A stretch of 63,090 bases of DNA, filler included, from Eubacteriales bacterium (GCA_045636665.1; 8 parts of 8 records of this genome joined end to end with filler, not necessarily neighbours in it), one strand, 5' to 3'. Positions 18,124 through 42,740 are shown, counted from the first letter of the whole stretch. Program-made: numbers and translations. The notes: generated from the sequence alone by a model not told the origin.

Positions 18124-19044
18124 CTTTTGGACTTCGATTTCGACATATTTTTCTCCGTTATCACCGACAGTTCCGTCTGCATCTGTCGTGCGCTGAGCAG
18201 AGCTGCGGTTGTTTGTTACTGCAAGAAAGCCGTCGGCTGTTGCAACAAGCTTGTAAACGATGACGCCGTCTTTTTCGGCGATATGCTTGTAATAATAACC
18301 CATTTCGTCATCTTCAAGAAGCGAAACCTTATATTCCTTTGCAATATCGGTTTCCACGGGGTTTGCATAAGTACCTACAGGATTTGCAAAGCAAAGCTCA
18401 TAGGTTTGCTTCGACGTCGAGGTGTTGGTAATTTCAAAAACAATCGCTTCGCTTGCCATCGCAGAAATAACTCTGAATGCAACAACGCCATCCTTTGGAG
18501 TATACTTTTTGCCATCGCACTTAATATAAAGGTCTTCGCTGTTAACAGTTACGTCTAATCCGCCGATACGGTAAATTCCATAGAATTGCGTTTCGTTTGC
18601 GCCGATTTCATAGGTGGTAAGCTTCATATCTTCATTGGGGAAAACCAAATAAGGATTTTCCTTTGTACCGTCGCCGATGATTTCGGGCTCGATGATCGGC
18701 TCGGAAGATTCTTCGTCGGGAGTGGAGGATTCGTCACCCTCGGACGATTCGTCGGAAGGAACCGAGGATTCGTCATTTTCGGTCGATTCGGAAGAAGCTT
18801 CTTGGGATTCGTCGCTTATTTCGTCGGAGGATTCAACATTAACGCTTTCGCTACTTTCGTTTGCGGCAGACGATTCATTTACAGCGCTCGAGCTTTCGGC
18901 GCTTGAGTTTTCGGTGTTCGAGCTTTGCGTTTCGGTTGCTTCTTCGCCGCCGCATCCAACCAAAGCGGTTAATGAAAATACAGATACAAGCGCCAAAGCC
19001 AAAACGGTTTTAAAAAGCTTTGAGGTTTTTTGTTTAATAATCAT
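18124..19044 (-). CDS. Lipoprotein with Ser/Glu-rich linker and GT..NP repeat domains; 3' truncated
   Basis: Lipobox LVGC; GDGTKENP and VGTYANP motifs. Confidence 0.85.
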
Positions 19045-19475
19045 TTTTCGCTGCCTTCCGAAAGCACGATTTTGTATTCGGCAATACCGCTTTCAAGATA
19101 TATTTCGGATTCGCCCTCATAAGCATATCCTTCGGGGCAGGAGAGCACCGAAAGCTTATAGCCGTCGGTAATTTCCGCATTAAAGGTCGCAACGCCGTCT
19201 GTGCCGGTTTTTGCGGGGATGCAGGTGTCTTTGCAAAGCTGAACCATAACGTTAGCCACAGGGTTTTCTGATGCGTCAACGACGGTAACCTTGAAGGTTG
19301 CGGTTTGTTGCTCGGTGGAGGTTTCGCTTACGGAAGCGGATTCGTTTTCGGAAACCGCTTTGCTTTCTTCGGTAGATACTGCCGAAGAATCGGTGTTTTC
19401 TGCAGTTTCACTGCCGCAAGCGCAAAGGATCGAGGTAAAGCAAATCAAGAGAAGGATTGCAATTATTTTTTTCAT
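19041..19475 (-). CDS. Small lipoprotein with Ig/Cna-like domain carrying a CxxxC loop
   Basis: Lipobox LCAC; FKVTVVDASENPVANVMVQLCKDTCIPAKT. Confidence 0.85.
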   Translation of the reverse strand: MKKIIAILLLICFTSILCACGSETAENTDSSAVSTEESKAVSENESASVSETSTEQQTATFKVTVVDASENPVANVMVQLCKDTCIPAKTGTDGVATFNAEITDGYKLSVLSCPEGYAYEGESEIYLESGIAEYKIVLSEGSEK

Positions 19476-19492
19476 TTTTTATATCCTTTCAA

Positions 19493-20392
19493 TTAATGAA
19501 TGTCGCTTAAATTACGGTAGGTTTTTTGAGTATATCCGTCCGACACGAAATTCGTAAAGATTCGATTAAAGACTTCCTTGTCGGTGATCATCCCCGTATG
19601 CGAAAAAGCAACCATTCCGTACTTGTCTATAACTATCGTGGTGGGGAAAGCGGAGATTTTAAACATATTCGCCCATTCGCTTTCGCAAGAAAACATGGGG
19701 AATGAAAGTTTCATTTGCTCTGAATATTCCTTAACGGATTCGTTGTTGCCGTCATAAGGATTTATTGCAAGGATTTCAATGTCATCCTTATATTCATCGT
19801 ACGCTTGTTGCATATAAGGAAATTCCATTTTGCAGGGATCGCAGCCGATAAACCAGAAATTAAGAATTACCGCCTTTTTATTCTTTAAAAGCTCGGAAAT
19901 CTTAAATACGTTACCGTTTACGTCGGTTACCGAAAAATCCTTAACAATGTCACCGAGCTTGTAGGTATCGCTTTCGTAATTAGGTTCAAGGAATACCGTT
20001 TCAAGCTTGATTTCGGTGTTTTGCGATACGGGATATTGGCTTTCGGATTTATATCCGTCGGGAATACCCGAAACCGTTGCGATATAATTTTTGGCTGAGT
20101 CGGCTTTGAAGAACATATTGCCGTTATCGTCGGTCGTACCTGCCCAAATAAGGTCTTCCCTATTATCTTCGTCATAAATATAAACCGTGACATTTGCAAA
20201 GCTCATACCGCCGACAGATTTTACGGAAAGAGTATAATCAACAGCATTTTCGGGAACGTCAAAGCTGGATTCTGCACTATCCTTAACCGCAGCCAAGCGC
20301 GCGCTCAGAATAGAGCAGGAGCTTAAAGAAAGCAACGATATTACAGCCGCGAGGAATAAAACGGTAAGTCTTTTAAAAACGTTGCTTTTCAT
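19493..20392 (-). CDS. Lipoprotein, Ig-like domain plus TlpA/redoxin domain
   Basis: Lipobox LSSC; ILNFWFIGCDPCKMEFP; cis-Pro motif FPTTIVIDKYG. Confidence 0.9.
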   Translation of the reverse strand: MKSNVFKRLTVLFLAAVISLLSLSSCSILSARLAAVKDSAESSFDVPENAVDYTLSVKSVGGMSFANVTVYIYDEDNREDLIWAGTTDDNGNMFFKADSAKNYIATVSGIPDGYKSESQYPVSQNTEIKLETVFLEPNYESDTYKLGDIVKDFSVTDVNGNVFKISELLKNKKAVILNFWFIGCDPCKMEFPYMQQAYDEYKDDIEILAINPYDGNNESVKEYSEQMKLSFPMFSCESEWANMFKISAFPTTIVIDKYGMVAFSHTGMITDKEVFNRIFTNFVSDGYTQKTYRNLSDIH

Positions 20393-21672
20393 TATTTTCC
20401 ACCGTTTTCAATATAGCAGCACATAAGAAGCCATGCTATTTCGTTGTTAATATCGGTTAAGTTGTTACCGTCCATATCCTTGAAAAGATAGGTTGCGCTT
20501 TCGGAATCCCACCAGCCTGCATAATCACCGCGTTGCTGAATGATGTACTTAAGGTCTTCGGTGAGAGGATATACGCCTTCGTTTTCATCGACACATTCGA
20601 TGTATTCAAGCAAGCATTCGGAATAGTTTTCTCTTTTTACGAATTCGCCGTTTTCATCGTAGAAATATTTCGAAACACCCGAACGGTCAAGAATGGTTTG
20701 GAAGCACGCGATATATTCGCAATCCTCCGCAAGACGGACAAGAACAAGCGGGCCGTTTGCCGAGTCGAGATGATAAAAGCCGTCTTCCTCATTGAACACA
20801 AGATTATAGGTGTCGGTCGATGCGGTCAAATCGAATTCGCCGAGAGCTGCACCCTCGGGAAGGCTGTATGCATTAAGCTCTACGGTAGTTTTATAAATAG
20901 TCCAGGGCTCATCCTCAATCGTCTTTATCGGGTCGCCGACGCGCTTAATAGTTAAAACGCAGTCTTCCCCGCCGTTTTCAAGCAGATCGATACCAAGAAC
21001 GAAGGTGGAGGTTCCGCCGTCGCCGCTACCTATCATTCCTGCGGCTACAGAAATCCGGAATTTATTATCGGTTACCTCGGCAACGTTATTTGCCTGAACA
21101 AAGTGCGGCGCACCGTAATAACCGATAGCGGTTTTGTCGTTACCGTAAATTGCAAATTCATAAACGCCTGCCGACTTAGGTACAAAAAGGAAATAATTAC
21201 GCACGTCCTTTTTAAGCTTTACATAGGTGCATCCGTCTTCTACAAAATATGCATCAAAGGATTCTTCGCCAAGTGAAAGCACGTTCGGCTCGGTGGTGAT
21301 GTTTTTGGAAATGACTGCCTCTGCTTCGGTGCGTTCTGCGGTAAGCGAAAGGTCGCCATCGATATGATAAGAAGCTTTTTCGTCGGTAAACTTAATATCA
21401 ACGGTATAATTATCCGCCTTTAAGGTTTTTACCGCTTCGCCTTGGTCGTTAATAGGCTGCATCGCAACCATTTGACCGTCTTTAACAAAGTGTACTATAA
21501 CGCCCGATTTTACGGGATCGCCAAATGCATCCTTTACTGTTACCTTATAAGAAAGGTCTTTTTGTTCCGCAGGCGCGGACGATTCGGACTCATTGCCCGA
21601 ACCGCACGCACCGAAGAGCATACAGGATAAAATTGACATTATGATTAATGCAACTGTTATTTTTTTGCTCAT
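20392..21672 (-). CDS. Lipoprotein, Ig-like domain plus uncharacterised C-terminal WLxxCxY domain
   Basis: Lipobox FGAC; FNEEDGFYHL..NGPLVLV..EGVYPLTEDL..AWLLMCCY. Confidence 0.85.
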   Translation of the reverse strand: MSKKITVALIIMSILSCMLFGACGSGNESESSAPAEQKDLSYKVTVKDAFGDPVKSGVIVHFVKDGQMVAMQPINDQGEAVKTLKADNYTVDIKFTDEKASYHIDGDLSLTAERTEAEAVISKNITTEPNVLSLGEESFDAYFVEDGCTYVKLKKDVRNYFLFVPKSAGVYEFAIYGNDKTAIGYYGAPHFVQANNVAEVTDNKFRISVAAGMIGSGDGGTSTFVLGIDLLENGGEDCVLTIKRVGDPIKTIEDEPWTIYKTTVELNAYSLPEGAALGEFDLTASTDTYNLVFNEEDGFYHLDSANGPLVLVRLAEDCEYIACFQTILDRSGVSKYFYDENGEFVKRENYSECLLEYIECVDENEGVYPLTEDLKYIIQQRGDYAGWWDSESATYLFKDMDGNNLTDINNEIAWLLMCCYIENGGK

Positions 21673-21692: not shown

Positions 21693-24515
21693 TTATTTAG
21701 CCGACTTGGCAGGACCGAGGTAATCGTAATAGTAGCAAACCTTCAACCACGAATTTTCAACGTTTTCGAAGGTATACTTATCCATAAGCATACTAAGAAT
21801 TTCAGCAAGTCTTTCGTCAACCTCAACACAGCCGTCGCGCTCGTCCTTGGTTTTGAGGATCTTCTTTGCGTACTCACGCATTTCATTTGTAAGATCCTCG
21901 CCATTGCCGTGATAACGGCCTGCAAAAACGTCGTCTATTTGATAAATTTCCGCGTTTGCATCGTATTCTTCGCCCCAAAGTCGTTTGAGGTATTCAATAG
22001 TCTTATCAACGTCGTTATCGTTTTGCTTGAAGTATGCCAAAATTTCGCCGTCGGTTTCGGATTTCGAGAAATCGAAGCCGTTCATTTCGATCATTTCGAT
22101 AATCGACTGACTGAAAACGGTGGTTATTCCGGTGAAGTCGGCGTAAATCATAGAACCGTCTTCGGAATCGTAGTACTTACCGTTTTTCAATTCGGGAGTA
22201 ATACCGCCCGAGATTACGTCATACATTACGTCGCCGGTTTCATTACCGTCATAGGTGAAATAACCGGGAGCCGCGCAACGGAAAAGCTCGAAGGTGCTTC
22301 CCAAATATTCAACGTCGTAATAGATATAACCGGTCGCATAAATATCCCAGAACGCCATATTGACGTAATAGGGCTTACCTGCTTCCATATAGTATACTAT
22401 CGAGCAGTTAATGCTGTCGGTATACATTCTTTCGTCGTGCTCGTAGGTGTAGATTATGTTGCCGTTTTCATCGAACAGCCAAGCATCGATACCGTCCTTA
22501 TAGTCACTCTTGGAGGTGAAACGGTATACACCGGATTTAGAGGGAACAAATTCAGAAAACAGTCCGCGCGGATGGATTGCTCTGTCATAATAGAAATAGT
22601 TGGTTTCAACGTTCTTACCAAGCTTGGTTACAAACGCGCTGGACGGAGAAAGTCCCTTAATCGGGTCTTGAAGCTGATTGCTTGTGGGGCCGAATACCTC
22701 ATAATATACACATATTTTGAGCCATTCGTTCTCATCGCCGTCAAAGCCCGCAACCTCGGATACCTGCTTGAGCATTTCTGCCAATTCCTTATTTACGGTA
22801 CAAATACCGCCGAGCGACGAGTTGGATGCATAAGAGAAATATCTTACCATTCCCTTGCCGCCGTTTTCTTTATCGTAAAGACTTACGCCGTCTTTATCTG
22901 CATCGCCGTTGTAAACGATTTCGTAAACCGAGGATTCTTCGTTAAACTGCGAGTAGTTCATAAGGTTAGCGAGAAGGAGAGGTCCGTTTTCGTTACCAAC
23001 GTGGTAATAACCGTCTTTTTCGTTGAAAACAATGCTTACGTATTCATAGCTGCCGTCTTCCTTGGAAACTGCCGCTTCACGGGGAAGGAAGGTTTCGACG
23101 TCGATATCCTTAACGTCAACAACACGCATATTATCGATATAAACGGTGTCGTCGCCCTCGCTGCTATCGCTGTCCTTGGTAAAGCAAAGCGCGATTTCGT
23201 AAGTGCCGTCTTCTTCGGCAACGCAGGGATAACAGGATTTCCACTCATCATTTTCGGAAACGCCCGATATTTGGAATACGTCATCGCCGTTTACGATTAC
23301 GTAAAGCACGTCGCAAAGGCGTTCGCTCGATGAGAAATAATCAAATCCGAATGCCTGACCTGCTTTAAGAGTAACATCGGCATAGATGATGGCATAGGAA
23401 TCGTCGATACCGATGTTGGATGCGCAGATTACCGATTCGCCAAGCTTTTCGGTGATAACGAAGGGCCAGATGTATTCTGCATTTTCATCTTCTGTTTCTG
23501 CGCGGTAATTGATTTCGAGCTCATCCTTATTAATAGCTTCTGCGATAGCGCTCGATTCGGGCATAGTTTTGTTGGGCTTGATGCGGTCAACAAGCTCGCC
23601 GATGCCGTTATAGCAGATTTTTTGGGTATAATCATCGGCAATAAAGTGCTCAAACGCGCTTACAAAGGGTCGTTTGCTTGTAATTGCGCCTGCTTCGATA
23701 ACACAAATAGTGCCGTAGCGGTCGATAAATACCGATGTGGGGTAGCCCGTAACAGAGAAGGTGTTTGCCCAAGAGGAAGGACAGGATGCCATCGGGAAAT
23801 CAAGACCGTGCTGAGCTTGGAACGCTTTTACGGCGTTGTTATCGTCAAGCGGGTCGATTGCGATGATTTCGATATCATCCTTATATTGAGCATAAACCTC
23901 GTTCATTATGGGGAATTCCTCCAAGCACCACGAGCAAGTGGTGTACCAAAAATTAAGCATAACCGCTTTTTTGGTTTTGAGGACTTCGGAAAGCTTGATT
24001 TCCTCGCCGTCGGGAGTGGTTACCGAGAAATCATACATAACGTCGCCGGTCTTAAGACTTGCGGATGCAAGATCGCCGTCGGTGATAAGTCCAGATTCCA
24101 AAACGATGGTAGCGCTTTCGCCGGTAAAGGAATAGAACTTTTCAACCTTATATCCCTTGGGGGGTGTGGAAATTACTATTGCGTATTCGCTGCTTTTGTT
24201 CAAGCTAAAGCTTGCTTCGCCGGCTTCGTTGGTTTTAGCGTAACCTGCAAGGTCGGTCAATTGGTTATTGGTATAAACGTGAATATCCAATCCCGAAAGA
24301 GCGATTCCGCTTGCCGACTTAACACGAACCGAATAGGTGGTGTTGATACCAAGCGCGCTTTCTTCGGTGCTTTGGTTATCGGTTATTTCTTCCCCACCGC
24401 AAGCGACGAGTGCCGAAATACACATAATTGCGACTAAAAGGCAAGCCAAAAGACGAATCGATTTCTTTGCTTCAACCGTCTTATTTTGTTTGCCAGATTT
24501 TTTTGTGTTTAACAT
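21693..24515 (-). CDS. Large lipoprotein: Ig-like domain, TlpA/redoxin domain, two WLxxCxY domains (940 aa)
   Basis: Lipobox LVAC; MLNFWYTTCSWCLEEFP, YPTSVFIDRYG; EWLKICVYY and SWLKVCYYY. Confidence 0.9.
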   Translation of the reverse strand: MLNTKKSGKQNKTVEAKKSIRLLACLLVAIMCISALVACGGEEITDNQSTEESALGINTTYSVRVKSASGIALSGLDIHVYTNNQLTDLAGYAKTNEAGEASFSLNKSSEYAIVISTPPKGYKVEKFYSFTGESATIVLESGLITDGDLASASLKTGDVMYDFSVTTPDGEEIKLSEVLKTKKAVMLNFWYTTCSWCLEEFPIMNEVYAQYKDDIEIIAIDPLDDNNAVKAFQAQHGLDFPMASCPSSWANTFSVTGYPTSVFIDRYGTICVIEAGAITSKRPFVSAFEHFIADDYTQKICYNGIGELVDRIKPNKTMPESSAIAEAINKDELEINYRAETEDENAEYIWPFVITEKLGESVICASNIGIDDSYAIIYADVTLKAGQAFGFDYFSSSERLCDVLYVIVNGDDVFQISGVSENDEWKSCYPCVAEEDGTYEIALCFTKDSDSSEGDDTVYIDNMRVVDVKDIDVETFLPREAAVSKEDGSYEYVSIVFNEKDGYYHVGNENGPLLLANLMNYSQFNEESSVYEIVYNGDADKDGVSLYDKENGGKGMVRYFSYASNSSLGGICTVNKELAEMLKQVSEVAGFDGDENEWLKICVYYEVFGPTSNQLQDPIKGLSPSSAFVTKLGKNVETNYFYYDRAIHPRGLFSEFVPSKSGVYRFTSKSDYKDGIDAWLFDENGNIIYTYEHDERMYTDSINCSIVYYMEAGKPYYVNMAFWDIYATGYIYYDVEYLGSTFELFRCAAPGYFTYDGNETGDVMYDVISGGITPELKNGKYYDSEDGSMIYADFTGITTVFSQSIIEMIEMNGFDFSKSETDGEILAYFKQNDNDVDKTIEYLKRLWGEEYDANAEIYQIDDVFAGRYHGNGEDLTNEMREYAKKILKTKDERDGCVEVDERLAEILSMLMDKYTFENVENSWLKVCYYYDYLGPAKSAK

Positions 24516-24555
24516 AAAATATGCGTCCTTTACATTATTATTAAATTTTTAAGAG

Positions 24556-24810
24556 TTAACGCATTGACAAGAAGATGAGTGCAACGATTCCGTAAGCCAC
24601 CAAAAGAAAGCCGATAACAACAAGCATTGGCTTGAACATCATTCTGACGGCACTCCAATAGGTGCGCCAAATATCCCTTGCGCTCGAAACGGTTCCGCGT
24701 TTTTTCCACGCTTTACCGCCGCTCACACCGGACATATCGGCAATCGTGCTTCCGTCATCGATATAAATGATTTTTTCTTTCTTTTCCTTTTTTGACTTCT
24801 TATTAAACAT
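24556..24810 (-). CDS. Small single-pass membrane protein
   Basis: YIDDGSTIADMSGV motif and C-terminal TM; within the operon (alternative start 24816). Confidence 0.75.
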   Translation of the reverse strand: MFNKKSKKEKKEKIIYIDDGSTIADMSGVSGGKAWKKRGTVSSARDIWRTYWSAVRMMFKPMLVVIGFLLVAYGIVALIFLSMR

Positions 24811-24830
24811 GTGCATTCATCCGTTTGAAT

Positions 24831-25832
24831 TTACTTTTCCAACAAATGGCAAGCCACAAAATGGCCGTTGCCGTAATCCTTGTATTGGGGTACTTCTTCC
24901 TTGCACTTATCGGTTGCATAGGGGCAACGGGTGTGGAATCGGCATCCTTTGGGAGGATTTGCAGGCGAGGGAATATCGCCCTTTAATATAATACGGTTCA
25001 TTTTAAGATCGGGATCGGGTTGGGGGATAGCCGAGAAAAGCGCTTGAGTATAAGGATGCAAGGGATTTGCAAAAATATCCTCTTTAGTGCCGAATTCGAC
25101 CATCGAGCCGAGATACATTACGCCGATCTTGTCGGAAATGAACTTAACGACCGAAAGGTCATGAGATATAAACACGTAAGTAAGGTTCATATCCTTTTGT
25201 AATTGCTTTAACAGATTGATTATCTGTGCTTGTATCGACACGTCGAGCGCAGAAACGGGCTCGTCGCAGATAACCAATTTCGGTTTGACCGAAAGCGCGC
25301 GGGCAATACAGATTCTTTGACGCTGTCCGCCCGAAAATTCGTGAGGATAGCGTTCGTAATAGTAATCGCGAAGACCGCATTTTTCCATAAGGTCGAGCAC
25401 GTAATCCTTTACCTCGCCCTTGGGTACGATATTATGTACCGTGACGGGCTCGGAAAGTATTCCGCCGACAGTGCTTCTCGGAGGAAGCGAGGAATAGGGG
25501 TCTTGGAAGATTATTTGCATCTGCTTGCGAATTTCGCGCATTTGCTTGGGCTTTAAATCTGTAATGTCAACACCGTCGAAGATAATTCTTCCGCCCGATG
25601 CGCTGTGGAGCTTTAAAATAGTTCTGCCGAGTGTGGTTTTTCCGCATCCCGACTCCCCTACTATACCGAGCGTTTCGCCTGCTTTAAGAGTAAACGAAAC
25701 GTCATCGACCGCAACAAGCTCTTGGGTTACCTTGCCCGTTACCGTTTTCTTTAAAGGGAAGCATTTACGGAGGTTTCTGACTTCAAGTATATTTTCGTTT
25801 GTTTTGTTTTCGTTATTTAATACTTCAGCCAT
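24831..25832 (-). CDS. oppF: Oligopeptide ABC transporter ATP-binding protein
   Basis: GESGCGKT, FQDPYSSL, YPHEFSGGQRQR, GDIPSPANPPKGCRFHTRC. Confidence 0.92.
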   Translation of the reverse strand: MAEVLNNENKTNENILEVRNLRKCFPLKKTVTGKVTQELVAVDDVSFTLKAGETLGIVGESGCGKTTLGRTILKLHSASGGRIIFDGVDITDLKPKQMREIRKQMQIIFQDPYSSLPPRSTVGGILSEPVTVHNIVPKGEVKDYVLDLMEKCGLRDYYYERYPHEFSGGQRQRICIARALSVKPKLVICDEPVSALDVSIQAQIINLLKQLQKDMNLTYVFISHDLSVVKFISDKIGVMYLGSMVEFGTKEDIFANPLHPYTQALFSAIPQPDPDLKMNRIILKGDIPSPANPPKGCRFHTRCPYATDKCKEEVPQYKDYGNGHFVACHLLEK

Positions 25833-25834
25833 TT

Positions 25835-26983
25835 TTAATCCTCCTCTCCGTAAAGATGGCATGCAACGAAATGGTTAGGCGATACCTCGACCATTTGAGG
25901 GTAAGCGCCCGAGCATTTACCGATACATTTACCGCATCTTTCCTTGAAATAGCAGTGATTGGGCATATTTACGGGGTTAGGCACGTTGCCGGGGATATTA
26001 AACAGCGTATCGCTGTCGGAATTAAGCGTGGGCTTTGATTTTTGAAGACCTATTGTATAAGGATGCAAGGGATTATGGAAAATTTCCGAAACGGGACCCT
26101 TTTCGATAACTCTGCCCGCATACATTACAATAACGTAATCAGCCATTTCGGCGATTATGCCAAGGTCGTGAGTGATAAGCATTATCGAGCCGTCGATTCG
26201 CGTTTTAAGGTCGCGAAGAAGGTCGAGAATCTGAGCTTGGATGGTAACGTCGAGCGCGGTGGTAGGCTCGTCGGCGATGATAAGACGGGGGTCGCTTGCA
26301 AGTGCCATCGAAATCATTACTCTTTGACGCATACCGCCCGAAAGCTCGTGGGGATATGAGTTGTAAACACGTTCGGGCATTGCGATACCGACAAGATCAA
26401 GCATTTGAAGCGACTTTTCCTTTGCTTCTTCCTTTGTCGCTTCGGGGCGGTTGATAAAGGTTACCTCATCAAGCTGTTGACCGATGGTGAAAACGGGGTT
26501 TAACGAAGTCATCGGTTCTTGGAAAATCATTGCGATTTGATTACCGCGGATTTTATGGATATCATCCATCGGCATTTTCGCAATATCGTAAATTTTGGTT
26601 TCTCCGTTGTCAAGCTTTGCATTAAAACGGATACTGCCCGAATAGATTTGACCGGTAGGTCCTTGAACAAGACGCATAACCGACATACTGGTAACCGATT
26701 TGCCGCATCCCGACTCCCCTACTACGCCTACCGTTGTATTTTTGGGAATATCAAACGACACGCCGTTTACAGCCTTTACAACACCTTGCTCGGTGAAGAA
26801 ATAGGTGTGCAGATTGTCGATTTCCAATATATTGTTCGGATTTGACATATGACCGAGATATTCGGTTTCATCTGCTTTGCGGTTTTTGTATGCTTCGAGC
26901 TTTTTGATAATCTTTTTGTTTTGCTTTGCGATAGCGCGTACTTCTTTACCCGTGAGGCGGTTTGCATTTTTAGTTTTACTCAT
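25835..26983 (-). CDS. oppD: Oligopeptide ABC transporter ATP-binding protein
   Basis: GESGCGKS, FQEPMTSLNP, LSGGMRQR, DEPTTALDVTIQAQI. Confidence 0.92.
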   Translation of the reverse strand: MSKTKNANRLTGKEVRAIAKQNKKIIKKLEAYKNRKADETEYLGHMSNPNNILEIDNLHTYFFTEQGVVKAVNGVSFDIPKNTTVGVVGESGCGKSVTSMSVMRLVQGPTGQIYSGSIRFNAKLDNGETKIYDIAKMPMDDIHKIRGNQIAMIFQEPMTSLNPVFTIGQQLDEVTFINRPEATKEEAKEKSLQMLDLVGIAMPERVYNSYPHELSGGMRQRVMISMALASDPRLIIADEPTTALDVTIQAQILDLLRDLKTRIDGSIMLITHDLGIIAEMADYVIVMYAGRVIEKGPVSEIFHNPLHPYTIGLQKSKPTLNSDSDTLFNIPGNVPNPVNMPNHCYFKERCGKCIGKCSGAYPQMVEVSPNHFVACHLYGEED

Positions 26984-26986
26984 AAC

Positions 26987-28129: not shown

Positions 28130-28142
28130 ATCGAATGCCTCC

Positions 28143-33074: not shown

Positions 33075-33094
33075 TTTATTATCGGTTTTCCTCC

Positions 33095-36000: not shown

Positions 36001-39000
36001 TAATGGTGTTATCACCGATGAACCATGCTTTCGAGGTTTCGGCATCGTCAAATTCAAGTTCTTCGGGAGTTTTGAGGATATATTCAAAATTCGAGAACGC
36101 AAACTGACCGATTTCGGTAAGTGAAAGACGCTTGGGAATATCGACCTGACCGCCGAGACCGTAATAGTGTGTAAGGCTGGGACCTGTGGTAATGAAGGGG
36201 TCCTTTACCTCGACCGAAACAGTTTCGGAATAATAGGTGCTTTGACCGTCAAGAAGTACCTTTACGGTAACCGACGCAAAGCCTTCGGCAACAGCGGTTA
36301 CGTTTCCGAGCGCGTCAATCTTAACGATGTTTTCGTTACTTGTTTCAAATTCGAGCGTCGTATCCTTGGGATAGAACGCATCGAGCGAGTAATTAAGACG
36401 TACACATTCAGAGGGATACATCGAAAGGTTATATTTTCCTTCGAAGAAGTTTACGTTGCCGTTTTCACCGATATCTCTTTCGGCATTGTCGATAACGTAA
36501 TACGCTTTGATGGTTTCGTATCCGTCAAGCGTGAATACGTCGACAACCGGCTTATCGTATTTTACATAGCCCTCGTCGTTTTCGTCGAGTACGGTAACCT
36601 TAAAGGTAACGCTCTTGCTGTTTGTGGGGTCTTGCGCTTTGATTATCGCGGTACCGCTCGAAACGGCAACGATTTTGTTGTTAACGATACGCGCAACGCT
36701 CGGCTTTTGCGAGGTATAGTCGAGCAATTCAGCCCATTCGGTATAAGGAAGAACGGTGGGAGAAAGTGTGTAAACCTCGTTGGGGCTCAAAACGATTCCG
36801 TCTTCGAGGTTTTCAAAATAGAAATCGGTGAAATCATCGGGAAGTCCGATTTCATAAGTCGCATAGTTAAGCGCATAGTCGTAAACGGTTACGACGAAGG
36901 AGTTGGGTGTAGACGAATTGTTTTTAATATCGTAAAGATAATCGGTCAATTCATAAGTAACCTTGGTCGTGCTGTTGCGATCGGAATATATGGGGGTCAT
37001 ATACTGCTCGAAAGCAATAAGCTCGGAGGAGGGGTTGCCGTCTGCATCGGTGCCCATTGTTACGTAACCGATCTGAGAGCTCATGGAATAGTGGTTATCG
37101 TAAACCATCACGTCGGCATAAAGACGGTTTTTGTTAAGCGCTTTATCGTACTTGTAATAGTATTCAACGCCTGTAACAGTGGGTGCTTGGAAGTCGATGG
37201 ACATCGGGAATTCAAACACGTTGTTTTCGTTGGTGGTAAGACCGCCGTCGCCGTAATCGACATAGCCTACAAGCTTAACGATATACTCGCTGTTATTTGC
37301 AAGATTGCGGTCGGTTGTATCAAATTCTATTTCGACGTTTGCGGGATAAATCGTAGCGCCGCCGTCACTGTAGGATTTTCTTACGTCGGTTTCGGTACGC
37401 TCGAAGATCACTTCGCCCGTTGTAGCATTTGTAATCGTAATATCGATCTTCGCCGCATTACGCAACATACCTGCCCAAACGAAGCGCAAGGAATGGACAG
37501 AGCCGACTTGGTTGGAAAGCGCGATATAGTTTTCGTTTGCCGAAATTACCATATCCTCGGGGTCTTGAATGAAGTAGTAAGAGCCGAGATAGCTTACGTA
37601 GTCATCGCTTACGCCGCCTACGGGACGGGTGGGATAAGCATCTGCTTTGATTTTATCCTCTTCATCGATACCGTTGTCGAGCTCGTCGGCATTGGTATCG
37701 AAATAGGTAAGGTCAAACAAGGGAGCAACGGTCCAGTCGCCGTAATATGCGAGATAGGGTACGTTAAGGTCGATTTCGGTGCCTTGGGTTGCGGTAAGAG
37801 TGATAAAGCCCTCGACGTACATACCGTTTGCAAACGATTTGTTAAGGTATTCCTTGTCGGAATCGCTGAGTGTTATTGTAACAGTAACGTCAACCGAGCT
37901 GTTTGCGGGAACGGTTACGTTCATATTTTTGAGAGTACCGTTGTTTACGGAAGCGGTAACGGTTGCGCCGTCAAGGATATAAGCTTCCTCGGTAACGGTG
38001 GTTTTACCTGCGTTAGTCTTGGTTTCGCTTACGCCCTCGGTCATTACGTATGCGCCGAGGTCATAGCTTAATACGGTGTCGCCGAAGTTGTTAACGGTAA
38101 ACTTCATTTCGTAAACACCTTTTTTATCTTTATCGTCACCAAGCTCAAGCTTTGATTTATCCATCACCGCGCCGTTTTTGTCATAGGTGGTGATGTATGC
38201 GGTGGTATTTATGGAGTTAAGGAGATTTGCAAGACCCGCGCCCTGCTTTCTTACCGCATAGGGCAAGCCGTTTTTGTTGAGCGCGATATTTGCGGTGGAC
38301 ATAAGAAGCGAGTTGACCATCGCGTTTACTTTTTTGTTATCGTTTGCGATGGAGGGGAATTTTTCGACAACGTACTGTCTTAACAGCACTACAACACCTG
38401 CGAGGTTGGGGCATGCCATCGAGGTACCCGAAAGACGGTCATATCCGCCGCCCGTTACTGCAGAAAGAATGCTTCCGCCGTGCGCGGTGATTTCGGGCTT
38501 GATACGAAGGTCGGGTGTGGGACCCCAAGAGGAGAAGTCGGAAATAAAGGGACCGGAGGTTTGGTTGCGTGCAATTTTAAGAGTACCGTTGGTTGCGGCG
38601 AGCATTTCGCCGTCGTCCTGTGAAATAGAGCAAACCGCAAGAGTAGCGTCGCCGACGTTCATTTTGATGTCGCCCGACACGTTGTTGTAAATAATAATAC
38701 CTGCCGCGCCTTGCTGCTGAGCAATAAGCGCTTTTTCTTCAAAGGTATTCGAGCCGCGGCGTACAAGCGCGATCTTGCCCTTTACGTCAAGGCCGGTATA
38801 GTCGGCGGTACGGCCGACACCGGGGATTACAACGTATTCAATTTCAACCGAATCCTTATCGCCGAGCAGCGTTTCGCAAAAATCGTTTTCTTCGCTTGCG
38901 CCGTCAGAGGATTCGACGAAGTAAATAATCGTATTACCGAAAAGGAGATAAGGAGTTTCGACACCCGCGATAGATGCAACCGACATAACGCCGTCATAGG

Positions 39001-40249
39001 TAGAGGGCGAGCCGACCGTACCCGTATCGGGGTTGGAGGTAAGACCGAGGTTACCGTTTGCTTCCGAGCCGTATGCCGAGCTGTAGCTGTTGGAAGCCGC
39101 AACGATCATGCTTATGCCTGCGTTACGGATTCTGTCGTAAATGCCGTTGAGCTTTTCTTCATCAGACTCGCGAGAGAAGCCGCAAGCGGTACCGAGCGAC
39201 ATATTGATAACGTCGACACCGAGAACAACGCAATCTTCAAGCGCCGAAAGAATCCAAGCCGATCTTGCGGTGTCCATTACGTCGGAGAATATCTTCATCG
39301 AAACGAGCTGAGCGTTGGGAGCAACGCCGCGGATAACGTCATCGTTACCGACGATAACACCCGATACGTGAGTACCGTGGTTGTTATGGGTAGAATAAAC
39401 GTCGCTGTCGTTATCGGCATAGTCGAAGCCGAAGGGAACCTTGTCGTTAATATATACGTCGTCGACGGTAAGGCCGCCGTGCTGCTTATTTGCGGCGGTA
39501 TTGCCGACAAGAGAAGCAACCTGATCGTAAGTAAGACCAAGCTTTTGCGAGGTGAAGTTATCGGGAGAAAACGCAGTGTGATTGGAGTCCAAGCCGGTGT
39601 CAAGAACCGCAACAACGATTCCCGAACCGTCAAAGCCCGCATTCGAGCTATCGAAAATACCGGTATCGAAAACGTTAACCTCGTTTTCAACAAGCTCGGT
39701 CTGTGCGGTTTTAAAGGATTCGCCAACGATAACGTCCATACCGTTGTAGAGGGACATACAAACGTCCTTGAAATCCTTTGCCTTGATAAGCAATTCAAAT
39801 CCGCTTAATACGGTGTAATATTCTTCGCCCTCTTTAAAAGAAACGTTTTTCGAGCGAAGCTCTTTCAACACCTTTGCCTTTTCGCGCGAAACGTCGGATT
39901 TGATTTCGGATACAAGCTCTTTATCCGATGCAAGGTCGGAAATACTTTGTGTCTTGTCACCCTTTTCATAAATATCCATAACGTTTGCCGCATCGACCGT
40001 AACGATAACCGAAATTTCCTCGTTATCGGAGATATGGTCGGGAAGCTTGAACATAACGGAATTATTAAGATAATCCGTATAATCAAACTTCAATTCGTTG
40101 TTTTTGTTGATATAGCCGTTGCCCGATGCCTTTGCGTCGGTATTACCGACAAACATTGCAGGGACGATAACGCTGCCAACCAACAAAACGCAAGCAAGAA
40201 CCGCAGAAAGCACGGTTTTGCAGCTCTTAAAAAGCTCGGTTTTCTTCAT
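33095..40249 (-). CDS. Cell-envelope S8 subtilase (2384 aa) with PA domain, Ig-like domains, BspA-type leucine-rich repeats and C-terminal TM anchor
   Basis: Triad VAVLDTG / HGTHVSG / SGTSMACP; KPEITAHG; PA GKIALVRRG; many IG.YAF..C..L..I repeats; C-terminal hydrophobic helix plus basic tail. Confidence 0.93.
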   Translation of the reverse strand: MKKTELFKSCKTVLSAVLACVLLVGSVIVPAMFVGNTDAKASGNGYINKNNELKFDYTDYLNNSVMFKLPDHISDNEEISVIVTVDAANVMDIYEKGDKTQSISDLASDKELVSEIKSDVSREKAKVLKELRSKNVSFKEGEEYYTVLSGFELLIKAKDFKDVCMSLYNGMDVIVGESFKTAQTELVENEVNVFDTGIFDSSNAGFDGSGIVVAVLDTGLDSNHTAFSPDNFTSQKLGLTYDQVASLVGNTAANKQHGGLTVDDVYINDKVPFGFDYADNDSDVYSTHNNHGTHVSGVIVGNDDVIRGVAPNAQLVSMKIFSDVMDTARSAWILSALEDCVVLGVDVINMSLGTACGFSRESDEEKLNGIYDRIRNAGISMIVAASNSYSSAYGSEANGNLGLTSNPDTGTVGSPSTYDGVMSVASIAGVETPYLLFGNTIIYFVESSDGASEENDFCETLLGDKDSVEIEYVVIPGVGRTADYTGLDVKGKIALVRRGSNTFEEKALIAQQQGAAGIIIYNNVSGDIKMNVGDATLAVCSISQDDGEMLAATNGTLKIARNQTSGPFISDFSSWGPTPDLRIKPEITAHGGSILSAVTGGGYDRLSGTSMACPNLAGVVVLLRQYVVEKFPSIANDNKKVNAMVNSLLMSTANIALNKNGLPYAVRKQGAGLANLLNSINTTAYITTYDKNGAVMDKSKLELGDDKDKKGVYEMKFTVNNFGDTVLSYDLGAYVMTEGVSETKTNAGKTTVTEEAYILDGATVTASVNNGTLKNMNVTVPANSSVDVTVTITLSDSDKEYLNKSFANGMYVEGFITLTATQGTEIDLNVPYLAYYGDWTVAPLFDLTYFDTNADELDNGIDEEDKIKADAYPTRPVGGVSDDYVSYLGSYYFIQDPEDMVISANENYIALSNQVGSVHSLRFVWAGMLRNAAKIDITITNATTGEVIFERTETDVRKSYSDGGATIYPANVEIEFDTTDRNLANNSEYIVKLVGYVDYGDGGLTTNENNVFEFPMSIDFQAPTVTGVEYYYKYDKALNKNRLYADVMVYDNHYSMSSQIGYVTMGTDADGNPSSELIAFEQYMTPIYSDRNSTTKVTYELTDYLYDIKNNSSTPNSFVVTVYDYALNYATYEIGLPDDFTDFYFENLEDGIVLSPNEVYTLSPTVLPYTEWAELLDYTSQKPSVARIVNNKIVAVSSGTAIIKAQDPTNSKSVTFKVTVLDENDEGYVKYDKPVVDVFTLDGYETIKAYYVIDNAERDIGENGNVNFFEGKYNLSMYPSECVRLNYSLDAFYPKDTTLEFETSNENIVKIDALGNVTAVAEGFASVTVKVLLDGQSTYYSETVSVEVKDPFITTGPSLTHYYGLGGQVDIPKRLSLTEIGQFAFSNFEYILKTPEELEFDDAETSKAWFIGDNTITKVVIPEGVKKINCYAFANLTALEEIVLPSTMESIEYGAFYGCTSLKKITFSGENNLVIVSQNAFENCDLRGTLDLSSICVISDYAFAGNQKLEKVILPESVLSVGQYAFAGCKKLASVDVKASKVKYGAYAFTGCESLKEFTVNSAVLPEGMFHECKQLEKVTVGKDVNDIGSFAFRDTKIKEFTIQSGNKAYKNGAYDYILSADGTKLVAVSPLTGGEFTEANVGNAKITTIGKGAFSHNRKLTSVNLPNVTAVGDYGLASNTYLTSVKLGKLTHIGEYGFFECGISEMPEITAETYVGKYAFSHTFLTSVNIPNGATVAEGTYSECQNLATIVIGDDVEIGRYAFSLNKDLAFKIVEAEEYGKKVFKYEFTSPITSLTIGKNANIGENAFSNAAKLESITLGEGAIIGKMAFYNNSSLKEIDLSKVKSFGDYAISGDVYYACLDENMTVAATSPEGMYIYTYHGPKVEKLDISSAESIGEYSFSYCRQLNEIKIGEAIKEIPAYAFAGCDSLKTINLTAIETIGKYAFMECGLENIDISGAKLVDEYAFVSNRLLESVKLNGEGSDIGEGAFAYCDPLKTVENLSASENIGDYAFAYVAITEIDLTGAVKVGINAFMKEEYTAVTVKLGEKLVKLGDNPFAMCKVEPFKSITKTTINGHELEIDTYTFDISNTVHVIDGSLYCETVNGLELITYAGIDKDNVTVADDTVRITAMAFAGSDVTRVKMPYTTTAIGHKAFYLCNDLEIVIFGSYNMPIFEEEFDPTYYDTLEHIPGSGDYGSYIDPNGEEVAIIGNGTVPFFMWNVTGGMYSNVFYGANFIDYVGYVESKPIMVSPINGVGYDSYICDQYFGYRIEGPAAPDKITVAAINAIKLIPERVTLADKAIVEAARAAYDKIATLEQMALVSNYNVLVTAEQRIAALEPTEEEQAPFESESGTAVWWILGIFIVAFVGFIVFRNRNEKKNED

Positions 40250-40296
40250 AGTTGCAACTCTCCTTACTTGTCCTAATGAACAAACAATAAAAATTC

Positions 40297-40405
40297 ATTA
40301 TATTTTACATTATTTTGTTGTAAATTGCAAGATATTTTTAATATGTAGGATTTATTTTTTAAAATTTTTCTTTTTCTTTACTTTTCGACACAGATATGTT
40401 ATAAT
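40297..40405. promoter_or_regulatory. Back-to-back sigma-A promoters
   Basis: - strand TTTACA-16-TATAAT (40324-40297); + strand TTTACT-17-TGnTATAAT (40377-40405). Confidence 0.6.
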
Positions 40406-40447
40406 GTCAGAGTATTTTCACCTAAAATCCATACGGAGATAATTGAA

Positions 40448-41278
40448 ATGACTGAAAAAGGGTTGACGATGACACACCGATTGATCGGAATTGCAATCAC
40501 AATTTCGATTATTATTGCGGGAATATGCCTTGCAGCCGGTTGCTGTTATATTTATTTTTCCGAAGATATGACCTATTCCCGAATCGCCGTTGCAGACGTT
40601 TTCGAGGTAATTTGCTTACCCGTTTACATTTGCCTTTTCCTTGTTGTTTTGGGCTTTTTGGCAGAATTGCTGTTGCCCAATGCAATCAAAGCGAAAAGCA
40701 AAGCGCCGATTTCGAGCGAAAACACGGTTAACGTTATTTTGAAAAAGCGAGATATTTTGACGTTTGACGACGGTATTCTTGCCGTTCATTACCGCGAAAA
40801 GGGCAAGCGCACCGTCAACTCGATAATTATGCTTATCCTGACCGTCATCGCCTGCACCGTGTTTTTCATTTATGCGCTTAACGGAAGCAATTTTGACAAC
40901 GTTGATATAAACGGCTCGGTCATTTCGGCCTTTTACGTGCTTATTCCCTGCTTGGCTGTTCCGTTTTTGTTTTATTTGTATTTGCTCATTGACAAGGAAC
41001 GCGGATACAGACGCGAATTATCGATTATAAAAAGTGCTTCCGAAAAAGGCAATGCAAAATGCGAATACAAGCCGAAATTTGAAAATTTCGATATTTTCGC
41101 ACATACCGTCGGCAGATTTTTTGAAACCGCTTTTTCGGGCAAGCCGCTTATTGCCGTAAGAATCGTCATTATTGCAGTTGCGTTGCTTTGTCTTGCTTTC
41201 GGTCTGATTTTCGGCGGCACCGCGGATGTGTTTACAAAGGCATCCAACATCTGCACCGAATGTATCGGTTTGGGGTGA
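40448..41278 (+). CDS. Multi-pass membrane protein ending in a CD1871A-like CxxC peptide
   Basis: About 5 TM segments; C-terminus GGTADVFTKASNICTECIGLG. Confidence 0.82.
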   Translation: MTEKGLTMTHRLIGIAITISIIIAGICLAAGCCYIYFSEDMTYSRIAVADVFEVICLPVYICLFLVVLGFLAELLLPNAIKAKSKAPISSENTVNVILKKRDILTFDDGILAVHYREKGKRTVNSIIMLILTVIACTVFFIYALNGSNFDNVDINGSVISAFYVLIPCLAVPFLFYLYLLIDKERGYRRELSIIKSASEKGNAKCEYKPKFENFDIFAHTVGRFFETAFSGKPLIAVRIVIIAVALLCLAFGLIFGGTADVFTKASNICTECIGLG

Positions 41279-41283
41279 TTGAT

Positions 41284-42732
41284 ATGAAAAAAATATTCAA
41301 AAGACTCGCTTTACTTATTCCGAGCAAGCGCAAATTAATGCAGCTTTATTTCGCATTGCTTTTCAATGCAAATTTAAAGGGCTACATAAGCGGTACGATA
41401 TTCAAGGGCGCGGCAAAATCGGCCTGCATTCCCGGACTTAACTGTTATTCCTGTCCCGGCGCGGTCGGCGCTTGTCCGCTCGGCTCGCTTCAAGGCGCCT
41501 TCAGTGCCGATAAAAGCACCTTCTTTTACGTTGGCGGCATACTTTTGCTATACTGCATTATTTTCGGACGTTTTATTTGCGGTTGGCTTTGTCCCTTCGG
41601 ATTTATCCAAGAGCTTGTTTACAAAATAAAAACGCCTAAAATAAAAAAAGGACCCGTTACAAAAGTCCTTTCGCTTTTCAAGTACGTTGTGCTCGTCTTC
41701 TTTGTGGTTATCGTTCCGTTGACCTATGCATTCCGCGACACTCCCCTGCCCGCTTTTTGCAAGTATATTTGCCCTGCAGGTACTATTGAGGGCGGTTTGG
41801 GATTGCTGTCCAACGAGCTTAACGACAGTTATTTTTCGATGCTCGGCCCGCTTTTCACCTGGAAATTCGCGCTAATGATAAGCGTTGTTGTCGCTTCGGT
41901 GTTTATTTTCAGAATGTTTTGCCGTTTTATTTGTCCGTTAGGCGCGCTTTACGGATTGTTTAACCGCTTTTGCCTTGTCGGTGTTAAGGTCAATACAAGC
42001 CGTTGCACAAATTGCGATTTGTGCGTAAGACATTGCAAAATGGATATCAAACGCGTCGGCGACCGCGAATGTATCGCGTGCGGCGATTGTATCGACGTTT
42101 GTCCCGTTAATGCGATTGAATGGAAGGGCGCGAAGATTTTAAAGCCCTACGAGGATGCGGTTTCCAAGGCAAAGAATCCCAAAAAAGCCCGTACCGTCGT
42201 CAGAGCAACAGTGTGCGTTTTGATGATTGCGGCGCTTATCGGTGTCGGAGCCTATACTTGGTTTGACGAAAGCAACAATCTTCCAGATCAAGGCAACACC
42301 ATCGGTATGCTTTGCTACGGTGACGAGCTTAACGTAATTACGAAAGACGGAATCGGCGAGGATGTGATCAATCCTGCGGAAACGGGAAAGATTACGGTTA
42401 TTAACTTCTGGGGCACTTGGTGCACACCCTGCGTTAAGGAGCTGCCTTATTTTGATCAAATCGCAAGCGATTTTGCCGATGACGTGAACGTAATCGCAAT
42501 TCATACAAATATGATTTCCGAAACCGCGCCCGAATATATCGGCAAGTATTACCCCGAAAGCAGAATTGTTTTTGCGCAGGATACCGCCGATGAGGGTTAT
42601 TATGCCAAGCTTGGCGGCAGAGGTACATATCCCTATACCGTTATTCTTGATGAAAACGGAGTAATCGCCGAAATCTTCGTTTCGGCATTGGAATATGACG
42701 ACCTTAAAACCGCTATCGAAAAAATAAGATAA
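41284..42732 (+). CDS. Membrane 4Fe-4S-binding (NapH/CcoG-like) protein fused to a C-terminal TlpA thioredoxin
   Basis: CIPGLNCYSCP, CGWLCPFG, CKYICPAG, CRFICPLG, two CxxCxxCxxxC ferredoxin motifs, TM, then NFWGTWCTPCVKELP and YPYT. Confidence 0.9.
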   Translation: MKKIFKRLALLIPSKRKLMQLYFALLFNANLKGYISGTIFKGAAKSACIPGLNCYSCPGAVGACPLGSLQGAFSADKSTFFYVGGILLLYCIIFGRFICGWLCPFGFIQELVYKIKTPKIKKGPVTKVLSLFKYVVLVFFVVIVPLTYAFRDTPLPAFCKYICPAGTIEGGLGLLSNELNDSYFSMLGPLFTWKFALMISVVVASVFIFRMFCRFICPLGALYGLFNRFCLVGVKVNTSRCTNCDLCVRHCKMDIKRVGDRECIACGDCIDVCPVNAIEWKGAKILKPYEDAVSKAKNPKKARTVVRATVCVLMIAALIGVGAYTWFDESNNLPDQGNTIGMLCYGDELNVITKDGIGEDVINPAETGKITVINFWGTWCTPCVKELPYFDQIASDFADDVNVIAIHTNMISETAPEYIGKYYPESRIVFAQDTADEGYYAKLGGRGTYPYTVILDENGVIAEIFVSALEYDDLKTAIEKIR

Positions 42733-42740
42733 CGATAAAG

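Follow-up and report, generated by a model that had tools for sequence, protein, structure and literature searches.

Do a surface protease, a peptide importer, several extracellular thioredoxins and an iron-sulfur membrane protein that are encoded side by side form a single system for using protein outside the cell? The question is raised by a locus in a stretch of 63,090 nucleotides (the window, taken at its full length and with filler included) from an Eubacteriales bacterium (GCA_045636665.1), whose genome comprises 1.8 Mb and is 80% complete. The first-pass annotation had proposed a 'reduce-cleave-import' module, in which disulfide bonds of a substrate would be reduced, the substrate cut by the protease and the peptides imported. 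The finding itself is real and conserved and is not an artefact. We regard it as rather likely that the two-gene membrane pair of the locus is a transmembrane conduit for reductant, and slightly better than an even bet that this pair cooperates in some way with the protease and Opp genes. The full reduce-cleave-import mechanism, as judged from sequence, receives a probability of about 0.4.

The window consists of contigs of a metagenome-assembled genome (MAG) chained by N spacers, and features should not be read across the joins (8749-8848, 18024-18123, 48032-48131, 51070-51169, 54042-54141, 56821-56920 and 60785-60884). Each join is a pair of 44-N runs flanking a 12-base spacer, which reads ttaattaattaa at 18068-18079. 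The locus lies on a single contig of 29,908 bases (window 18124-48031) and includes the following features (aa, amino acids; Trx, thioredoxin):

18124..19044, minus strand: lipo322, a Ser/Glu-rich lipoprotein whose C-terminus is lost at the contig end
19041..19475, minus strand: lipo144, a small lipoprotein with a transthyretin/Big_1-like domain only
19493..20392, minus strand: Tlp299, a 299-aa lipoprotein with a transthyretin-like domain and a ResA-like Trx domain (CDPC)
20392..21672, minus strand: lipo426, a lipoprotein with a transthyretin-like domain, a PPC/collagen-binding-like sandwich and one copy of an undescribed domain
21693..24515, minus strand: Tlp940, a 940-aa lipoprotein with a transthyretin-like domain, a ResA-like Trx domain (CSWC), a beta-sandwich and two copies of the undescribed domain
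24556..24816, minus strand: an 86-aa protein whose N-terminus is basic and whose single transmembrane helix is C-terminal, kept after OppF
24831-25862, minus strand: OppF ATPase, above the NF008453 cut-off (424 against 408)
25835-26983, minus strand: OppD ATPase
26987-28129, minus strand: OppC permease
28143-29135, minus strand: OppB permease (OppBCDF, 24831..29135, carry the Pfam set BPD_transp_1/OppC_N/ABC_tran/oligo_HPY)
29151..31718, minus strand: a long OppA-type binding lipoprotein of 855 aa, in which some 270 inserted aa interrupt SBP_bac_5, with the lipobox LASC
31752..33074, minus strand: lipo440, a 440-aa lipoprotein of no known family, with the lipobox FTAC
33095..40249, minus strand: a subtilase of the cell-envelope proteinase (CEP) type, 2384 aa (Pfam: S8 2.1e-42, PA, fn3_5, LRR_5 2.6e-106)
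40250..40447, no strand: divergent spacer of 198 nt, with the two best sigma-70-like matches of the region placed back to back
40448..41278, plus strand: a 276-aa protein with five transmembrane helices and a CD1871A-type C-terminal domain, ending NICTECIGLG
41284..42732, plus strand: a 482-aa fusion of a NapH-like polyferredoxin, a fifth transmembrane helix and a ResA-like Trx domain with CTPC (Pfam: Fer4_5, Fer4, Redoxin)

The 13 open reading frames (ORFs) of the minus strand start at 40249 and extend, co-oriented, as far as the contig end (18124), separated by -28 to +40 nt, in the order S8 protease, lipo440, OppA, OppB, OppC, OppD, OppF, 86-aa transmembrane protein and five lipoproteins. 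The two plus-strand genes, for the CxEC-tailed protein and the NapH-like/Trx fusion, diverge from the S8 gene and begin 198 nt from its start. At least 13 tightly packed co-oriented genes and a divergent membrane pair had been read from the sequence, and ORF calling with Pfam and NCBIfam searches places every one of them where it had been put. The gene list therefore stands, while the extent of the cluster needs amendment: since 18124 is a contig end, the last lipoprotein gene (lipo322) is cut and the cluster probably goes on. In a genome of another family (G151) two further such lipoprotein genes lie beyond the equivalent of this point. The promoter region of about 200 bp that the divergent units had been said to share was also found; the best matches, ranked across 24000-43400, are at 40324..40297 on the minus strand (11/12) and 40377..40405 on the plus strand (10/12, with TG), and these are matches to consensus only. 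The arrangement is more than chance, because relatives contain this set of genes too, with proteins 50-87% identical.

A lack of linkage between the protease/Opp genes and the redoxin/4Fe-4S genes in related genomes had been named beforehand as grounds for refutation. The linkage held: six other genomes contain the complete set, arranged in three or more gene orders. Of 60 other family genomes, five encode a full-length orthologue of the fusion, three of one genus (G002, G031, G054) and two of another (G030, G053); none of four same-genus genomes does. Full-length orthologues of Tlp940 and close ones of lipo440 (38-47% identity) are found in the same five and in 0 of the 55 others. All five carry the CD1871A-type gene, the fusion, Tlp940, lipo426, S8, lipo440 and OppA together, in three gene orders; in G030 and G053 these form a single co-oriented string (CD1871A-fusion-Tlp940-lipo426-lipo144-S8-lipo440-OppABCD...). 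In a sample of the order (201 genomes, 30 families) the fused form is present in four genomes (G000, G002, G151, G172), and the undescribed lipoprotein domain in three of these four and in 0 of the other 197. G151 has exactly the gene order of the window, at 63-87% identity (OppB 87%), and the same order in another family fits horizontal transfer of the whole island. From these sequences, the island has probably moved horizontally.

A scan of all species gave at least 597 related stretches, of which the 80 best loci were taken for analysis with 10-kb flanks. The redox pair is the constant part across these loci, with the five-helix partner gene immediately upstream of the fusion in 64 of them. 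An S8 gene stands next to the pair in 26 of the 80 by clustering and in 31 when contig-end fragments are included; of these 31, it is divergent and upstream in 26 and downstream in five. Tlp940-type genes (19-21/80) and lipo440 (17-21/80) also adjoin the pair. The ORF caller took a longer antisense frame in preference to the fusion in seven loci and to Tlp940 in two (L051, L101), so neighbour counts based on ORFs are too low and tblastn counts are set beside them; the filtered tblastn count for the 80 loci leaves out the Tlp940 of L085, which is present in other scans. A tree of 75 fusion proteins, built by a quick method (SH-aLRT, midpoint root), puts most S8 links in one clade of 44 rows; S8 links, like those of Tlp940 and of Tlp940 with Opp, are represented in both main clades.

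The two proteins of the pair are highly constrained. In 52 homologues of the five-helix protein the sole invariant part is the C-terminal tail, K-A-x3-C-x-E-C-x-G-x-G-COOH; NF040920 (CD1871A family CXXC) scores 30 bits on it against a cut-off of 32, with positions 1-38 of 38 matched. In the fusion, PF12801 (Fer4_5) scores 67.1 bits against a cut-off of 22, and no other Fer4_5 gene was found in the genome. None of its 20 cysteines varies across 55 sequences; they belong to a C-x5-C-x2-C-x6-C motif, to three CX3CP motifs, to two [4Fe-4S] motifs (eight ferredoxin cysteines) and to the Trx CxxC. The Trx part matches ResA (4nmu, E 2.5e-10), whereas the NapH part has no sequence match in the PDB. 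TIGR02163 (NapH/MauN) reaches 72.5 bits and not its cut-off of 213, and there are no nap genes in the locus.

Hydropathy and charge indicate four strong helices, a weak first helix and K/R-rich loops at 99-127 and 214-304, the latter being the ferredoxin part; a further transmembrane helix (305-323) comes after this ferredoxin loop. The predicted topology of the fusion is thus NapH-like, with the N-terminus and the clusters inward and the four-cysteine loop, the middle CX3CP and the Trx domain outward. The tail of the five-helix protein is likewise predicted to be outward, because the helix preceding it comes after a K/R-rich loop. The outward cysteines may form a thiol-disulfide relay, or may be ligands of further clusters ending beside a redox-active disulfide, as in ferredoxin:thioredoxin reductase.

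Structure prediction places the two proteins in a complex with an ipSAE of 0.66 (runs of 0.65, 0.66 and 0.68), against 0.00 for the best control. A mark of 0.66 is reached by 116 of 157 solved complexes and by two of 215 mismatched pairs, a benchmark that holds only roughly here since our own alignments were used. At least 93% of the contacts agree between runs and the pLDDT of the partner is at least 72. In the model, residues 251-276 of the partner lie against 39-48, 54-56, 62-64 and 155-163 of the fusion and against its Trx site (379-382, 447-449), which brings the CxEC tail up to the Trx active site as well as to the outer CX3CP and four-cysteine motifs. The two proteins also meet through their cytoplasmic loops. 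The model agrees with the inferred topology and does not prove it.

Several variants of the pair and its neighbours were seen in these surveys. In two MAGs (approximate positions: L072, 3209-4724; L089, 9932-11600) two genes replace the fusion, one NapH-like (322 and 343 aa) and the other for the Trx domain (184 and 210 aa), 7 nt and 19 nt apart respectively; this is either natural fission, which would support a partnership of the two halves, or a frameshift. Eleven of the 201 order-level genomes (G119, G093, G109, G084, G229, G203, G134, G188, G218, G195 and G144) encode a NapH-like core of about 290-340 aa that belongs to the same subfamily (E 1e-97 to 1e-127) and has no Trx domain. Two other types of Trx protein lie directly next to the partner gene: c11 (L087, L064, L070, L073, L075), of about 580-646 aa with an N-terminal Trx domain and an unmatched C-terminus, and c23 (L083, L091, L099), of about 490-520 aa with a central Trx domain. 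These may be alternative clients of the pair. BatA/VWA ('aerotolerance'-type) proteins adjoin Tlp940 or the redox pair in L085 (1985-6366) and L057 (1-5172).

If the pair supplies reductant, the distribution of the usual supplier is of obvious interest. The absence of ccdA/dsbD and msrAB, originally noted for the visible part of the locus, holds genome-wide: the DsbD_TM profile (PF02683, positive in 10 of 14 named control genomes) finds nothing in the locus or in any of six carrier genomes, MsrA was found in 0/6 of the same genomes, and MsrB gave 0/5 in those searched (G054 lay outside that search). Repair of surface proteins of the Etrx-MsrAB type is consequently unlikely here. Among the 55 non-carrier genomes of the family, 22 have DsbD_TM, next to a small TlpA-like gene (for example, G038:C60, G023:C71 and G010:C52). 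TlpA-like matches (E <=1e-10) occur in 6/6 carriers, in 13 of the 22 CcdA genomes and in one of the 33 with neither (G046), the carrier count being partly circular because the locus itself encodes such genes. The suggestion that the 4Fe-4S/CxEC pair stands in for CcdA/DsbD thus gains from the lack of CcdA in the six carriers, from the TlpA distribution and from the predicted complex, and is to be taken as suggestive only.

Each of the five other carriers in the family has, in addition, a small TlpA-like gene that is unlinked and not close to any CcdA gene. The neighbourhoods of these genes contain thioredoxin, CotH, DUF4434 and dockerin proteins and offer no clue to an electron supplier or client. 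In G030 and G053 (L104, 3968-6368; L105, 2013-4414) the small gene lies with thioredoxin, CotH-kinase-like and DUF4434 genes, far from the island.

The protease has a signal peptide, an S8 domain with a PA insert, fn3_5, Ig-like domains, eight stretches of LRR_5 (leucine-rich repeats of the BspA type) and a C-terminal transmembrane anchor. Its catalytic motifs are intact (DTG 217, HGTH 291, GTSM 608), and it has both the PA (57.7 bits) and the fn3_5 (60.4 bits) domains that mark the CEP branch. Among solved structures, its sequence is nearest to C5a peptidase (7edd, E 1.7e-70, over aa 203-840) and SpyCEP (5xya). There is no LPXTG motif anywhere in the sequence, the C-terminal helix taking its place, and NF040553 (SGO_0316/0317 family, LPXTG) scores 281.7 bits, below its cut-off of 1400.

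The importer has the full Opp/Dpp-type (PepT) complement: an SBP_bac_5 protein, two BPD_transp_1 permeases and two oligo_HPY ATPases. It belongs to the peptide/nickel class of ATP-binding cassette transporters, a family that, by NCBIfam names, also includes nickel, opine-metal and glutathione binders, and its putative substrate is an oligopeptide. OppA resembles AppA (1xoc, E 5.7e-10) and scores 97.7 bits with NCBIfam Opp4A, below the cut-off of 650; no match was found for its insert of about 270 aa. lipo440 has no Pfam or NCBIfam match and nothing below E 0.5 in a PDB sequence search. It stays next to OppA both in loci without S8 (L081, L085) and in stand-alone Opp units. Homologues of the 86-aa protein occupy the same position in G054, G031 and G151.

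All three Trx domains of the locus align with Bacillus subtilis ResA, with CxxC..E(F/L)P and a cis-Pro (CSWCLEEFP, CDPCKMEFP, CTPCVKELP). With NF002854 (ResA subfamily, cut-off 170) they score 87.7, 100.3 and 58 bits, that is, they are ResA-like and not ResA. They appear from these motifs to be of the reductive ResA type. Tlp299 matches ResA 2f9s (E 3.9e-17), with CxxCK.EFPYM and the cis-Pro aligned. Tlp940 and Tlp299 are predicted, from their lipoboxes, to face outward. An AlphaFold (AF2) model of Tlp940 (24 sequences, pLDDT 85) has a transthyretin-like domain, a Trx domain, a beta-sandwich and a large C-terminal part. In a Foldseek search its matches include ResA (4nmu, TMt 0.89), other ResA-type chains (TMt up to 0.91), Etrx1 and Etrx2. 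C194, C197 and C602 are invariant and C927 is present in 92% of 25 sequences.

The AF2 model of lipo426 (pLDDT 88.6) has three parts. Residues 40-123 are transthyretin-like (3e8v in VIA-align: Z 10.9, root-mean-square deviation (rmsd) 2.0, 77 aligned) and residues 123-245 resemble, with middling scores, the collagen-binding or PPC regions ColG s3a-s3b (5iku, Z 9.7) and ColH CBD (3jqw, Z 9.5) from collagenases of clostridia. No fold match is listed for residues 250-426 in the search with the whole model; this part was not searched by itself, and we therefore do not call its fold new. A PDB sequence search with lipo426 gave nothing below E 0.5, and the protein atlas lists only 'hypothetical' and CarboxypepD_reg rows. 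A likeness to multicopper oxidases (Foldseek TM 0.11-0.13) was rejected as beta-sandwich noise, the rmsd being 18-30 Å.

Residues 250-426 of lipo426 are one copy of the undescribed domain, of which Tlp940 has two (with a conserved W..C.YY). Its motifs are D-G-x-Y-H, G-V-Y-P-L and W-L-x-x-C-C-Y. There is no Pfam model for it, and a profile recovers 1008 representative proteins at E <=1e-3 and 680 at E <=1e-10. When 30 of the best 150 were scanned with Pfam, the companion domains were thioredoxin (10/30), Ig/transthyretin-like and one dockerin, with no others. Of the remaining lipoproteins, lipo144 has homologues in G054, G002, G031, G030, G053 and G151, and lipo322 in G054 and G151.

From the observed gene content, domain make-up and conserved linkage, together with the lack of CcdA and Msr genes in the carriers searched and the predicted complex, we infer which way electrons flow, that they are passed to the lipoproteins and what kind of substrate is involved, as follows. 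The island would consist of three modules acting together on extracellular protein. The membrane-anchored S8 protease, held out on its BspA-type repeats, would cut proteins at the cell surface, and lipo440, the long OppA and OppBCDF would take up the resulting peptides. The two-protein membrane complex, which would replace CcdA/DsbD in these genomes, would pass cytoplasmic reducing equivalents by way of the two [4Fe-4S] clusters and the conserved cysteine motifs to CxxC sites on the outside. The outward Trx domain of the fusion would give electrons to the ResA-like Trx lipoproteins. The transthyretin-like, PPC/collagen-binding-like and undescribed domains may hold the substrate while its disulfides are opened before or during proteolysis. 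In its most specific form, the proposal is of an iron-sulfur transmembrane disulfide reductase, a second route beside DsbD/CcdA, that powers unfolding of the substrate by surface Trx lipoproteins with a new domain for holding it, CEP cleavage and specialised Opp uptake; such an enzyme would be a membrane counterpart of ferredoxin:thioredoxin reductase, and its targets dietary or host disulfide-rich proteins. This version we hold to be doubtful.

A number of observations weigh against reduce-cleave-import. The pair is a self-contained unit: its neighbours are often unrelated genes, such as those for SecA, IF-2 or LeuRS, and no protease gene is visible there. Of the 36 loci with at least 8 kb on both sides, S8 and Tlp940 are each present in 16; the two occur together in 11 and are both missing from 15. 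In most loci with S8 the flanks of 10 kb are also too short to reveal Opp and the more distant lipoproteins. Conversely, four genomes (G035, G021, G011, G047; L109-L112) have a stand-alone unit of a lipo440-like gene (26% identity), a long OppA (about 810 aa, 35-48%) and OppBCDF, with no S8, Tlp or fusion gene nearby, which suggests that lipo440 is an accessory of this long-OppA type of transporter and not of the protease. Inheritance or transfer of one island may account for much of the linkage, related genomes not being independent. The complex score is the model's own confidence, built on our own alignments, and the outward place of six of the fusion's cysteines depends on a weak first helix, a charge count and the complex model. 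Finally, two genera (g2, g3) are without CcdA whether or not the fusion is present, so the pattern of CcdA substitution is not decisive. The original proposal therefore keeps its linkage and the support for a CcdA substitute, and loses some force as to obligatory coupling: as the pair stands alone elsewhere and the Opp unit occurs without redox genes, the joint action of the three modules is something that we infer.

Four other explanations were weighed. It is unlikely, though to be taken seriously, that the pair is a housekeeping substitute for CcdA, with Trx lipoproteins that maintain or repair the cell's own surface proteins instead of acting on substrates and a linkage that reflects client proximity and co-transfer. 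The many contexts in which the pair stands alone, including the 15 well-flanked loci above, would then be expected, and so would the unlinked small TlpA-like genes of carriers without CcdA; known Etrx, ResA and StoA systems act on proteins of their own cell (PMC3914529, PMC2665060). The known repair partners, MsrA and MsrB, were however not found in the carriers searched, and this explanation leaves unaccounted for both the retention of Tlp940 with Opp in loci that lack S8 and the binding-type sandwiches on the lipoproteins. The protease could itself be such a client, as it has 27 cysteines, 15 of them conserved in at least 85% of 27 sequences, but cysteines of LRR_5 repeats are probably buried core residues. 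The S8-less loci also bear on the idea, in our view rather improbable, that the core function is reduction and import of a small disulfide nutrient (cystine peptides, mixed disulfides) for sulfur or cysteine, with Tlp940, lipo440 and Opp as the core and S8 as a later addition in one clade. L081 and L085 have Tlp940, lipo440, a long OppA and OppBCDF without S8, L095 has Tlp940 and Opp, and such loci occur in both clades of the fusion tree; Tlp940 is about as frequent a partner as S8, and OppA has a weak match to Lmo0135 (5isu, E 6.9e-7), which we take to be associated with cysteine transport. Yet these loci are seen with 10-kb flanks only, most Tlp940 loci (11 of the 16 with two flanks) have S8 too, and the PPC/collagen-binding-like sandwich, for all its middling Z-scores, suggests binding of a polymer.

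A different direction of flow is very improbable. In this case the Trx domains would be oxidative or isomerising, or the module would reduce metal like the Fer4_5 relative CcoG, electrons passing inward or to the metal. Fer4_5 relatives pair with varied partners, reductases and oxidases alike (PMC8238504, in part), TIGR02745 (CcoG) matches the fusion weakly (E 4e-6) and lipo426 gave the multicopper oxidase rows mentioned above, which are probably shared beta-sandwich noise. Against this, the active sites are ResA-type with an acidic residue after the CxxC, and not CPHC, and an oxidative pathway would be of little use to anaerobic gut organisms. Distinctly improbable, too, is the absence of any functional tie, that is, three independent modules in one island with a linkage kept by recent co-transfer. 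Each module does exist somewhere without the others, and the island looks as if it had moved between families (G151 again), but the linkage outlasts at least three rearrangements and divergence of the fusion to 45-50% identity, and in G030 and G053 a single co-oriented string contains every module. Reduce-cleave-import is the reading that we prefer.

How does such an island relate to systems already described? In the lactococcal PrtP-Opp scheme, surface proteolysis feeds peptide uptake. The island resembles PrtP and the streptococcal CEP systems in its S8 protease with PA and fn3_5, in having C5a peptidase and SpyCEP as best solved relatives and in encoding Opp alongside. It differs in the transmembrane anchor without LPXTG, the long LRR_5 tail and the 855-aa OppA with its large insert; no PrtM/PrsA-type gene was recognised, and redox genes are joined to the unit, for which we know of no parallel in any CEP-Opp system. 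With the CcdA/DsbD-fed proteins ResA, StoA, TlpA and CcmG, and with the CcdA-Etrx1/2-MsrAB2 system of Streptococcus pneumoniae, it shares outward tethered Trx domains, CxxC..E.P and a need for transmembrane electrons. Here, by contrast, the supplier would be an iron-sulfur protein and not a two-cysteine transporter, the thioredoxins are fused to large binding-type domains, and neither DsbD_TM nor MsrA is found in any of the six carriers. Lacking DsbD_TM, the redox pair is no member of the DsbD/CcdA/ScsB group, though it may work like one. DipZ of Mycobacterium tuberculosis also has Trx followed by a beta-sandwich, and its C-terminal part is the top Foldseek row for Tlp940 (2hyx, E 2e-11, 341 columns); the TMq of 0.14 and the rmsd of 18 Å over both domains mean that the agreement is in domain types and order only, and DipZ has a DsbD membrane part of its own whereas Tlp940 is a lipoprotein.

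According to Meheust et al. (2021, PMC8238504), NapH-like PF12801 proteins are modules that conduct electrons across the membrane, in most cases fused to an FMN-binding domain outside the cytosol. As far as that source goes, the fusion has in common with the NapH, NosR and PceC/RdhC modules a Fer4_5 core with CX3CP, two cytoplasmic [4Fe-4S] motifs and an outward redox domain on the same chain. Its outward domain is, however, a C-terminal Trx behind an extra transmembrane helix instead of an N-terminal FMN-binding domain, and it has an extra invariant four-cysteine motif, a third CX3CP and an obligatory CxEC-tailed partner. The passages of that paper considered here describe no thioredoxin fusion or CxEC partner; its supplements may list Trx-linked clusters. 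A functional parallel is keratinolysis, in which disulfide-rich proteins resist proteases until they are reduced, and reduction or sulfitolysis accompanies subtilisin-type keratinases (PMC6095591). Such systems are not described as a single gene cluster that also encodes an importer and its own electron conduit through the membrane, and the island has no shown link to keratin. Literature searches gave no description of a CEP/Opp/thioredoxin island, or of a NapH-like/thioredoxin pair with a CD1871A-type partner; a preprint on selenoproteins (10.1101/2022.07.06.499078), in the part seen, proved unrelated to the system. Judged from sequence, then, the parts are of known kinds (NapH-like conduits, ResA-type redoxins, CEP-Opp) and their combination appears new.

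If reduce-cleave-import is correct, these genomes have a second, iron-sulfur-based way to send reducing power across the cytoplasmic membrane to exported thioredoxins, which would explain extracytoplasmic thiol chemistry in many gut Clostridia without CcdA. It would also give uncultured gut anaerobes a gene-packaged route to attack disulfide-stabilised proteins (candidate targets being mucin domains, immunoglobulins, plant storage proteins and protease inhibitors) and so would bear on protein fermentation and nitrogen flow in the gut. In addition, the undescribed domain family, with at least 1008 representative proteins and no Pfam model, is singled out for structural and biochemical study.

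Some neighbouring features on the same contig deserve mention. A GC-rich hairpin of 9 bp (42740-42760), 8 nt past the stop of the fusion gene, appears as a minus-strand row in the terminator scan and may act for both convergent units. Running towards the fusion gene, at 43341-44677 on the minus strand, is a class-V aminotransferase gene of cysteine-desulfurase-like type (Aminotran_5 1.2e-59), accompanied by one for a 73-aa Se/S-carrier-like protein (PF11823). A homologue of the desulfurase adjoins the redox pair in L026 (73% identity) and a partial one is present in L028; these neighbours could provide sulfur or clusters, or could be there by chance. Further on, at 44834-47925 on the plus strand, the gene for an ECF-type (extracytoplasmic function) sigma factor of 185 aa overlaps by 4 nt that for an 845-aa protein without a Pfam match. 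This pair was not seen in the related loci, and could be a sigma factor and its anti-sigma factor.

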